This document shows positions 33,977 to 35,992 of a stretch of DNA of 64,000 bases, one piece after another. The notes under the pieces are model-generated. The model did no database searches. It had not been told where the DNA came from and saw only the letters and a list, made by a program, of their open reading frames with translations. Numbering within the stretch: position 1 is the stretch's first letter; the number at the start of each line of letters is the position of its first letter. Made by a program: the position numbers and the translations under genes. The stretch is from an uncultured archaeon (GTDB lineage Archaea; Asgardarchaeota; Thorarchaeia; Thorarchaeales; Thorarchaeaceae): NCBI GenBank assembly GCA_964558645.1, contig CAZLEV010000001.1:125568-189567 (forward strand), in the 5' to 3' direction.

Positions 33977-34414
33977 CTACTCTCTCGGAGGTCTAGGTAG
34001 CTCGCTCAAGTTCACAATGTCTTCAATCCATGCAGCAAGATGGTCGGAGATATCCTCCATGTATCTCATCAGAGCTTCTTGGAATCTATGAAGCTTGTCT
34101 TGGTCCAGCTTTCCAGTCTTTGACTTGTAGTCATCAACCCGTCTGGGTAAACCCAATGCCCACTTCCTCAGGCTGACCTCGGCTTTTCGATCGGACAGGA
34201 TTCTTTTTGCAGTTCTATCTTTTCTCCAGGTTTCAATCAAATCCTCAACGAGACGCTGGACACCAATCAGCGCTGCAACAGCCTCTTTTGCATCATCCTT
34301 CTTGGCTCGATTACGGGTAGTATAGTATACTTCCTTCAGCTCGCGCTTTGCATTCATGACCTTGCCGAGGAAAGTCCTGAGTTCTCGCATGAGTGTCACA
34401 TGTGCTTTGACCAA
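33977..34414 (-). CDS. Hypothetical all-helical protein
   Basis: Charged helical ORF, basic N-terminus and acidic C-terminus, ends LSELPRPPRE; start 34414 or 34390. Confidence 0.6.
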   Translation of the reverse strand: MVKAHVTLMRELRTFLGKVMNAKRELKEVYYTTRNRAKKDDAKEAVAALIGVQRLVEDLIETWRKDRTAKRILSDRKAEVSLRKWALGLPRRVDDYKSKTGKLDQDKLHRFQEALMRYMEDISDHLAAWIEDIVNLSELPRPPRE

Positions 34415-34464
34415 GATTACTCTTTTGCATCTATTTCGGTTCATTCTGTTTTCTACAAGAAGCC

Positions 34465-35118
34465 CTAGATGGCCGAATATTGGCATCTGCCGTCCCGACT
34501 GAAGGGACAGATTATGCAGACGTTCCTATTTGATTTAGGCTCAGGTGTCTTGTTACGAAACCAGTAGTCATCCATCTTCTGCAATTGTGAAATAGTACGT
34601 GATGGTCTGAAGCTCTTGACCATAACAGAGGCATTTCTGCATCTAACACAGTTGGCGACATTTTTCTTCTGGCAGTTTTTCGCATGTTCTTGAAGGCAGT
34701 AGATCGTGACCAGTTTGGCAGAGCTGCACGAAACACCCGATTCCTGGAGGGCAAGAGCATAGAGACTTGCCTGGAAGAAATCTTCCTTCTGTGGTTCTCG
34801 CGGCAGAAATCTAGTTGGGTATTTCCTTTCAATAACCGCCTCGAGAATTCCCACTTGATTGAACCGCAAGACCGCCGCGTCGAATCTCCCTGTGTATCTA
34901 TGTGTCATTGAAATGACACTCTCTTCTGTGAAGAGACATCTTTTCTGGATTCTTTTAGAATCTTGTTCAAGGAATTCACGCAATGATATAGGCGACCGTG
35001 ATGCAGTCGCTATCACCCTCCGAATCCTCATAGTCGCACCGCCCGCCCTAATCACAGAGAGCGCGACAATCCCAATTATGAAGAATGCAAGGAGGACTAA
35101 GCTTGCTATTTCATTCAA
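34465..35118 (-). CDS. Membrane-anchored PD-(D/E)XK Cas4/AddB-like nuclease, catalytic half
   Basis: N-terminal TM; GRFD, IERK, QASLYA, C-terminal CIICPFSRDGRC. Confidence 0.7.
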   Translation of the reverse strand: MNEIASLVLLAFFIIGIVALSVIRAGGATMRIRRVIATASRSPISLREFLEQDSKRIQKRCLFTEESVISMTHRYTGRFDAAVLRFNQVGILEAVIERKYPTRFLPREPQKEDFFQASLYALALQESGVSCSSAKLVTIYCLQEHAKNCQKKNVANCVRCRNASVMVKSFRPSRTISQLQKMDDYWFRNKTPEPKSNRNVCIICPFSRDGRCQYSAI

Positions 35119-35375
35119 AGTAGTCCCTCCATCACCCAGAGAATGCCAGCTATTATCGTCAAGATGGCAACAACGACAAAGATCTTCTCATATTCGATGA
35201 AGTGCTGTTCTGCTGATGCTCTATCCGTCCCGTGGAGATGAGTGCCAACCCTCTGTGCTTGGCTGTTCGGAGCTCCGAACCTCAGTCGAAGATACAGTCG
35301 GTACTCGCAGAGATACTGAATTCTCAGCTCAGAGACCTGACGAAACCCTTTCATCTGTGTCCGCTTTGAAGGCAT
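35115..35375 (-). CDS. Small TM protein carrying the N-terminal motifs of Cas4-like nucleases
   Basis: VSELRIQYLCEYRLYL..GTHLH then a C-terminal TM; 4-nt TTGA overlap with the next gene. Confidence 0.6.
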   Translation of the reverse strand: MPSKRTQMKGFRQVSELRIQYLCEYRLYLRLRFGAPNSQAQRVGTHLHGTDRASAEQHFIEYEKIFVVVAILTIIAGILWVMEGLL

Positions 35376-35575
35376 GTCTCTCAAGCATGCTGTTCCTGAT
35401 ATACTCTCATAAGGTCCTATTTCTTCAAGTCTACCTCAAGAAAACAGCCGAAAATATGCGTCGAGTGAGGGGACAAACAAAAGAGCTTTATTTATATGAG
35501 TCGCAATAAGAGGACTACAAGTCCAGTCTTGCTGCAGCTGGATATGGGGAAAAACTAAGCAGGTGAATATTCAAG

Positions 35576-35992
35576 ATGTCCGAGTACGAAGGGGCCACAG
35601 CCGGTCGAGTCTTAACTTTTGATGAGAGTGAGAGTGTTGCCTTTCCAACTTCATTCAAGGAAGCGCTGGGTACAGACCGCGGGCTTATGGTGCTTGTACA
35701 CAAAGACCGTTTGATCAAAATCTTCCCGTTGGATGCCTCAGAAGTGAGCTACCTTTCTCTTGAGATTGGAAAACTCACGAATGATTTCCTAACGCGTCTT
35801 TCACAGATCTTCAAGAAGTCGGGCCTGATTGACCTGCTATTCTCTACTGGCGTCTGCTTGCGAGGAACTCGTTGTTTCTACGAATGCTATTTCTCACCCG
35901 AACAGCTGACTCTTTCACTGGACGAACTGAGAGACTCACTTGGAGAACTAGATGGGGTTAGGCGGGTCATAATCAAAGAAGTAGGGAAGTAG
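35576..35992 (+). CDS. AbrB-like plus ACT-domain putative regulator
   Basis: N-terminal D....V.FP..FKEALG swapped-hairpin pattern; C-terminal ACT-like LTRLSQIF...L.ELDGVRRV. Confidence 0.5.
   Translation: MSEYEGATAGRVLTFDESESVAFPTSFKEALGTDRGLMVLVHKDRLIKIFPLDASEVSYLSLEIGKLTNDFLTRLSQIFKKSGLIDLLFSTGVCLRGTRCFYECYFSPEQLTLSLDELRDSLGELDGVRRVIIKEVGK

Follow-up and report, generated by a model that had tools for sequence, protein, structure and literature searches.

RESULTS

Two overlapping reading frames as predicted halves of one EXO5-type nuclease

In a 64,000-nt stretch of DNA from an uncultured archaeon of the family Thorarchaeaceae (GenBank assembly GCA_964558645.1, contig CAZLEV010000001.1, positions 125,568 to 189,567 of the forward strand; hereafter the window, meaning this stretch at its full length), two overlapping open reading frames (ORFs), ORF1 and ORF2, most probably encode, judging from their homology, a single EXO5/Cas4-type PD-(D/E)xK iron-sulfur nuclease whose chain is interrupted in the linker that follows the N-terminal helices. 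Nucleases of this type, which Pfam groups in the clan PDDEXK (PF09810, PF01930, and PF12705), have their domain on a single polypeptide, and here each locus has two ORFs. ORF1, for which a TTG at 35384 offers an alternative start, reads VSEL..QYLCEYRLYL..GTHLH (Cys23, Gly44, and His48), followed by a hydrophobic segment at residues 65-86, while ORF2 carries the putative catalytic core. The original prediction, made from the letters of the window without database searches, had quoted the motifs of both ORFs, including the TTGA overlap between them and four further Cys of ORF2, and all of these were found (Table 1).

Our alignments of 42 sequences from each family revealed a set of strictly conserved residues, comprising the R, V, L, Q, C, G, and H of the N-terminal motif in ORF1, and D80, E97, K99, Q116, Y120, and all seven Cys in ORF2. 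In an exhaustive hidden Markov model (HMM) search of 1.84 billion representative proteins, the distant matches were soluble single-chain proteins of 226-277 aa that pass the Pfam thresholds for Exo5 and/or PDDEXK_1 (e.g., P0033, P0036, and P0062); some of these relatives bear the Joint Genome Institute (JGI) label "Cas4 (RecB family)." An alignment of the single-chain Exo5/PDDEXK_1 relatives, termed A5, has invariant positions C43-E44, G64, H68, G113, D116, E130, K132, Q146, Y150, C241, C244, and C250. The ORF1 profile aligned to residues 32-72 of A5 (hhalign 96.6%, E 4.9e-10) and the ORF2 profile to residues 105-256 (hhalign 99.5%, E 1.1e-22), so that the two families lie side by side on A5 with no overlap, and the Cys-to-Gly (21) and Gly-to-His (4) spacings are the same in ORF1 and A5. 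When this genome was searched in six frames with the A5 profile, exactly two places were returned, namely ORF2 (E 8.3e-17) and ORF1 (E 0.0096). These results bear out the claims that the small ORF corresponds by homology to the family's N-terminal segment with its first cluster Cys, and that the large ORF holds the catalytic core and the three C-terminal Cys.

The same comparisons placed the pair more precisely within its superfamily. A5 matched human EXO5 (7LW7) with E 3.5e-19, covering both the N-terminal ..DLA.QNWCE...G.SIH and the C-terminal Cys motifs, and the ORF2 profile by itself matched human EXO5 (7LW7) with E 8.6e-4, a match carried by the QxxxY region and the C-terminal Cys region (KCRTCTY..C). 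Sub-threshold Pfam matches within the ORF2 family were to PDDEXK_1 (10/42), Cas_Cas4 (4/42), and Exo5 (2/42), and those within the ORF1 family were to Exo5 (3/42); the ORF1 alignment, searched as a profile against the PDB, had matches at chance level only. The PADLOC 2023 search returned Cas4 models only, matching ORF2 with E 3.5e-5, which is a likeness at the superfamily level only, and the TIGR00372 equivalog scored 14.7 bits (E 0.02), short of its cut-off of 65 bits. The description "Cas4/AddB-like" thus stands at the level of the superfamily and has to be amended at the level of the family, the nearest family being EXO5 and its prokaryotic single-chain relatives, not CRISPR Cas4 or AddB.

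Fold models

The AlphaFold2 (AF2) model of ORF2 had a mean predicted local distance difference test (pLDDT) score of 85.9 and was poorly defined only at the C-terminal Cys region. Its top Foldseek matches were Cas4 (8D3L, 4IC1, and 7MI5), MGME1, and EXO5, and by both Foldseek and VIA-align the fold is that of a RecB-like restriction endonuclease. VIA-align superposed the ORF2 model on residues 55-190 of Cas4 7MI4 (Z 10.8, root-mean-square deviation [rmsd] 2.8 A, 116 residues aligned) and on residues 147-354 of EXO5 (Z 7.7-8.1). The matches begin at Cas4 residue 55 and EXO5 residue 147, and ORF2 therefore lacks the N-terminal segment of these enzymes.

To place the ORF1 part, we used a read-through model of L049, a locus of a relative in which the two parts lie in the same frame. 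The in-frame TGA was read as Trp, and unpaired ORF1 and ORF2 homologs served as the alignment. In this model (pLDDT 82.3), the junction region forms two long helices (65-87 and 97-127), in line with a hairpin. The model was superposed on Cas4 residues 5-198 (Z 12.4, rmsd 4.4 A, 157 residues aligned) and on EXO5 residues 74-353 (Z 10.2-10.4). Because its coverage reaches back to Cas4 residue 5 and EXO5 residue 74, the ORF1 part fills the place of the missing N-terminal segment.

A putative cluster and active site shared between two chains

Both the [4Fe-4S] cluster and the active site would, on the strength of these conserved motifs, be shared between the ORF1 and ORF2 chains. The His of the G-x3-H motif is invariant in ORF1 and A5 and is also present in human EXO5; in Cas4 SSO0001, the catalytic metal is coordinated by the N-terminal G-x3-H His jointly with the core Asp and Glu. 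As this His is supplied by ORF1, both chains would contribute not just to the cluster but also to the active site. The final Cys spacing of the C-terminal triad of ORF2 is x6-7 in the split family versus x5 in the EXO5/Cas4-type triad (C-x2-C-x5-C). The insert C141/C149/C157/C160 is a probable second metal site, and the nearest single-chain relatives (P0033, P0036, P0060, and P0064) have a four-Cys insert at the same place.

We consider it unlikely that ORF2 is the nuclease by itself and that ORF1 is a separate small membrane regulator, inhibitor, or anchor. Such a division of labor would agree with the ORF2 model, which folds confidently by itself, and with locus L017, where ORF2 looks intact though an insertion element disrupts ORF1. 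However, the L017 lineage is decaying, its sister genome having kept an ORF1 remnant only, and ORF1 of the family retains an invariant Cys and G-x3-H His, spaced as in the single-chain relatives and EXO5. Furthermore, ORF2 is without the part equivalent to Cas4 residues 1-54 or EXO5 residues 74-146, and its C-terminal Cys triad is invariant yet one ligand short of a four-Cys site.

Conservation and coupling of the split

A species-level scan with one genome per species yielded 51 loci, all from Thorarchaeota/Promethearchaeota metagenome-assembled genomes, and in approximately 49 of approximately 50 loci the ORF1 homolog lay directly upstream of the ORF2 homolog. The frame of ORF2 relative to ORF1 was offset by +1 in approximately 26 loci and by +2 in approximately 22, and only in L049 (L049:4139-4150) did the two parts share a frame, with one TGA and two codons between them. 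Read-through of this stop would yield a natural single chain linked by a hairpin. Across relatives, the junction was mostly a gap of 4-5 nt or an overlap of 4 nt. ORF1 usually ended in ..W-I-x-G-stop, encoded by TGG ATN NTN GGG TGA, and in 35/43 junctions the last Gly codon and the stop formed a GGTGA-type Shine-Dalgarno motif, placed 4-5 nt ahead of the ATG, GTG, or TTG of ORF2.

Both ORFs are under purifying selection: in five informative pairs, the Nei-Gojobori ratio of nonsynonymous to synonymous substitution rates (dN/dS) was 0.09-0.38 for ORF1 and 0.12-0.30 for ORF2, with dN alike in both. In addition, no fused form was present among the 1.84 billion representative proteins. The HMM search of that collection returned 21 clusters at E<=1e-30, all of <=252 aa, followed by a sharp fall to E ~1e-8, and its few long entries were out-of-frame N-terminal extensions; in a second search of 5.8 billion proteins, every ORF2 homolog measured 164-239 aa and none was fused. 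The relatives in some 50 genomes therefore keep the split, with a varied junction geometry, and a fused form with a transmembrane (TM) hairpin, for which the original prediction had suggested looking, was not found in either collection.

These data bear directly on two ways in which the split might be only apparent. The first is that an indel introduced in sequencing or assembly, or else a recent frameshift, broke one gene in this genome, since a 4-nt overlap and a difference of one frame have the look of a single-base indel. The probability of such an artifact is practically nil: the same split occurs in approximately 49 independent assemblies with both offsets, with gaps or overlaps, and with one in-frame stop; purifying selection acts on both ORFs; and fused homologs are absent from two very large protein collections. 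The second is programmed recoding, by a -1 or +2 frameshift or by stop read-through, into a single chain with an internal TM hairpin. The ORF1 stop is always within a few nucleotides of the ORF2 start, and the parts of L049 are in frame and one TGA apart, as recoding would have it, but the offset (+1, +2, or 0) and the spacing vary, so that no single recoding signal can be conserved, and what the junctions do conserve, a Shine-Dalgarno-type motif ahead of ATG, GTG, or TTG, is a mark of re-initiation. Recoding is accordingly extremely unlikely. Because the split is conserved, the junction varied, and both genes selected, assembly error, recent frameshift, and programmed frameshifting are effectively excluded. 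The junction has the sequence signature of termination-reinitiation coupling, not of recoding, and ORF1 and ORF2 are two real genes with a predicted translational coupling.

Membrane helices and topology

The mean of the best 19-residue Kyte-Doolittle windows was 2.77 in the ORF1 family and 2.65 in the ORF2 family (42 sequences each), and in the soluble part of ORF2 the value never exceeded 1.55. ORF1 has the layout of a tail-anchored protein, with a single TM helix at the extreme C-terminus, a very short tail (median of 1 residue after the helix), and no N-terminal signal, and in ORF2 a median of 3 residues lie ahead of the helix. For ORF2, the 15 residues that follow the helix had a net charge of +2.5 versus -0.67 for the part ahead of it; in ORF1, the net charge ahead of the helix was +0.74. 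Both soluble domains would thus be cytoplasmic, with the chain ends meeting outside, in the manner of a TM hairpin severed at its turn; hydropathy and positive-inside charge thereby agree with the earlier proposal that the two soluble halves share one face of the membrane. An ArsA/Get3-type ATPase is encoded in the genome, which is consistent with tail anchoring of ORF1 but is no evidence of its use.

An outward-facing nuclease core, as in an extracellular membrane-bound nuclease, or a first helix of ORF2 that serves as a cleaved signal peptide would also fit a protein that, like secreted ones, opens with a hydrophobic helix. We hold this to be very unlikely, as the region ahead of the helix is acidic or neutral, not basic, the hydrophobic stretch spans approximately 20 residues, and the charge of ORF2 is +2.5 after the helix versus -0.67 before it. 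From general knowledge, a Fe-S domain would moreover need to be exported in the folded state, and the ORF1 domain would then lie opposite the ORF2 core unless ORF1 was also inverted.

Genomic context

The features of the locus are compiled in Table 1.

Table 1. Features of the ORF1-ORF2 locus, with positions in the window (TM helices, domains, and metal ligands are predictions)
Feature	Position	Strand	Remarks
ORF1, small subunit, 86 aa from ATG	35115..35375	-	Predicted cytoplasmic N-terminal domain and C-terminal tail-anchor helix
ORF1 N-terminal nuclease motif VSEL..Q-x2-C23-E..G44-x3-H48	35232..35336	-	Putative first Fe-S ligand and conserved motif His
ORF1 C-terminal TM helix, residues 65-86	35118..35183	-	Best 19-residue Kyte-Doolittle window 2.62
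Shine-Dalgarno-like GGTGATGGAGGG in the last ORF1 codons	35125..35136	-	6 nt upstream of the ORF2 TTG start
TTGA overlap	35115..35118	-	ORF2 start TTG and ORF1 stop TGA; predicted translational coupling
ORF2, large subunit, 217 aa, TTG start	34465..35118	-	Predicted N-terminal signal-anchor helix and PD-(D/E)xK core
ORF2 N-terminal TM helix, residues 4-23	35050..35109	-	Best 19-residue Kyte-Doolittle window 2.88
Catalytic core G77-R-F-D80 ... E97-x-K99 (GRFD 77-80, IERK 96-99)	34822..34890	-	ORF2; invariant in 42 sequences
Q116-x3-Y120 motif (QASLY 116-120)	34759..34773	-	ORF2; invariant; aligns with FQVSLY of human EXO5
Four-Cys insert C141-x7-C149-x7-C157-x2-C160	34639..34698	-	ORF2; all four Cys invariant
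C-terminal C201-x2-C204-x7-C212	34483..34518	-	ORF2; three remaining putative Fe-S ligands; invariant
15-nt motif GCAAAAGAGTAATCT	34414..34428	-	Conserved in many loci, ~25-35 nt upstream of the ORF3 start
ORF3, 137 aa, all-helical, ends PRPPK/R	33977..34390	-	Directly downstream of ORF2; conserved, ~50% identity

All loci share one syntenic block, which comprises FAD/Fe-S oxidoreductase genes, inositol-1-phosphate synthase, a CpXC protein, a VTT/DedA protein, a 138-aa protein, and ORF1-ORF2-ORF3, and which continues past ORF3 with aRF1, the alpha and beta subunits of PheRS, a Ras-family GTPase, and a CBS protein. The pair thus occupies the same block throughout, not the variable context of a defense island or mobile element. 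Across the family, the identity of ORF1 and ORF2 is approximately 40% versus 70-77% for the flanking genes. The 138-aa protein (35576-35992, plus strand) is divergently oriented from ORF1, with which it shares a 200-nt intergenic region, and is 64-96% identical across the family; it had no Pfam match and only a weak NCBIfam match to PRK08577.

No cas1 or CRISPR was present near the ORF1-ORF2 pair, as had been noted at the outset, and Cas1 (C4:109177-110016) adjoins a canonical Cas4 (C4:110516-111082) on another contig of this genome. The pair is not part of CRISPR.

All 16 genera of the family carry ORF3, even those without the nuclease pair, and neither Pfam nor PDB gave an informative match for it. 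A call of 169 aa starting from 34486 is probably an over-extension of this gene. The motif upstream of ORF3 appears as TTTTTAC or TTTATAC in other subclades and as ATATAAAT in g15 and g3, and GCAAAAGAGTAATCT is probably the promoter of ORF3 itself; with its own promoter, ORF3 would be transcriptionally separate from ORF1-ORF2.

Distribution and loss

We surveyed 400 Asgard genomes, of which 85 belong to the family of the window and 315 to other families. Strong matches were limited to the family of the window, where they occurred in 70/85 genomes and 14/16 genera, and the other 315 genomes gave weak partial matches only. Closer inspection of three of these weak matches identified them as ordinary single-chain relatives, and one of the three overlaps a NurA gene. 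In that locus from another Asgard family (L064:54-1825), the overlap is between a soluble single-chain Exo5/PDDEXK_1 relative (260 aa) and the end of a gene for a NurA-domain protein (330 aa), an arrangement that suggests an end-resection pair of NurA and an EXO5-like protein.

Within the family, the pair was absent or decayed in several places. In g15 and g3, no more than 114-150 nt separate the 138-aa gene from ORF3, and the nuclease pair is cleanly absent. In a tree of aRF1 rooted with two other families, which represents a single gene and has an unresolved base, g15 was sister to the genus of the window (support 95/88) and the deep branches carried the pair; g15 has therefore lost it, and a secondary loss is supported in this case, while g3 could reflect either loss or primary absence. 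One genome of g16 has a decayed ORF1 fragment and no ORF2 (L063:2362-2562), the remnant consisting of 66 codons without the His motif and TM helix between the 138-aa gene and ORF3. In L017 (L017:1-580), the sister of L063, a TnpB-like element of the IS200/IS605 OrfB type replaces the 5' part of ORF1. The genomes without the pair had no single-chain EXO5-like substitute, apart from weak matches in G387. The pair was probably present in the ancestor of most or all of the family and inherited vertically, independently of ORF3, and because it has been lost at least twice, it is dispensable.

DISCUSSION

The two chains suggest a plausible course of assembly. ORF1 would be tail-anchored, with its soluble N-terminal domain in the cytoplasm and approximately one residue outside, and ORF2 would be held by an N-out signal anchor with its nuclease core facing the cytoplasm. 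Pairing of the two helices in the membrane would let the ORF1 domain dock on the ORF2 core, such that Cys23 of ORF1 and Cys201, Cys204, and Cys212 of ORF2 would surround a [4Fe-4S] cluster, and His48 of ORF1 would join Asp80, Glu97, and Lys99 of ORF2 at the catalytic metal site. The product would be a membrane-tethered, cytoplasm-facing nuclease working on DNA ends that arise at the membrane. By analogy with EXO5 and Cas4, the enzyme is probably a 5'-end-dependent single-strand DNA exonuclease, and its tethering would suit the destruction of foreign DNA, the processing of imported DNA, or membrane-proximal repair. Its fast evolution and repeated loss lean toward an accessory role, and its dispensability fits such a role, for example in the handling of foreign DNA, whereas its fixed housekeeping location leans the other way.

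Several observations weigh against the picture of a membrane-tethered nuclease divided over two chains. Neither ORF of the window had a Pfam match, and neither reached any curated cut-off of Pfam or NCBIfam. The C-terminal Cys region, which would supply three of the cluster ligands, had a pLDDT of 47-70 in both models, which are free of cofactor, and the alignment behind the L049 model was unpaired, with its two membrane helices partly misaligned. Only hydropathy and the positive-inside rule underlie the topology. The housekeeping surroundings of the pair (PheRS, aRF1, and inositol-phosphate synthase) offer no functional clue, and ORF3 was rejected as an obligate third component, being retained where the pair is absent.

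Fe-S "staple" nucleases (Cas4, EXO5, AddB, and Dna2) have been treated as single-domain units in which the four Cys come from one chain, and our full-text literature searches turned up no account of a Cas4 or EXO5 that is split or anchored in the membrane. The pair in the window would represent a conserved natural variant with three departures from this scheme: the first Cys and an active-site His would be carried by an 86-aa tail-anchored protein of their own, the complete enzyme would be membrane-tethered, and the cluster would span the two subunits. Because the two pieces can be expressed apart or together, what the cluster and the N-terminal arch contribute could be tested directly. Furthermore, Asgard archaea, the relatives of the eukaryotic host lineage, would gain a lineage-specific membrane-associated DNA enzyme that belongs to the family of eukaryotic EXO5.

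Comparison with known systems

The closest known system is EXO5, or exonuclease V (PF09810; human EXO5, PDB 7LW7-7LWA), with its single-chain relatives, which share with the pair the Q-x2-C-E...G-x3-H motif, G-x2-D, E-x-K, Q-x3-Y, the C-terminal Cys triad, and the fold. These proteins consist of one soluble chain, whereas in the split pair that chain is cut after the N-terminal helices and has a TM helix on each side of the cut. Cas4 (PF01930, TIGR00372; SSO0001, 4IC1; type I-C, 8D3L; Cas4-Cas1 fusion, 7MI4) provided the best structural matches (Z 10.8-12.4), and it has a 1+3 Cys cluster layout and 5'-3' exonuclease chemistry. Unlike Cas4, the split pair lies away from cas genes, falls far below the Cas4 cut-offs, is divided, and is predicted to be membrane-anchored. 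The two-chain RecB-family enzymes AddAB and AdnAB, which possess a Fe-S "staple" nuclease domain of the same superfamily, ranked lower in the fold lists; AddB and AdnA/B carry the whole nuclease domain with four Cys in one chain, whereas here one domain is spread over two chains.

A more distant comparison concerns the site of action. It is possible, though doubtful, that the pair serves as a gatekeeper nuclease of EXO5 type in which the DNA-threading channel, the Fe-S cluster, and the active site close only when the two anchored chains meet, and which acts on entering DNA. It would then work solely at the inner membrane face, on DNA that comes in from a virus, from a plasmid, or by uptake, and self would be discriminated from non-self by location, as in the bacterial system SNIPE, albeit through independent evolution from a repair-type nuclease. 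SNIPE of E. coli is a membrane-bound anti-phage nuclease that acts where foreign DNA enters (PMC13190303). The likeness is one of working principle only, a nuclease held at the inner membrane face, and is not based on homology; SNIPE is a bacterial defense system, whereas the split pair resides in a conserved archaeal housekeeping block.

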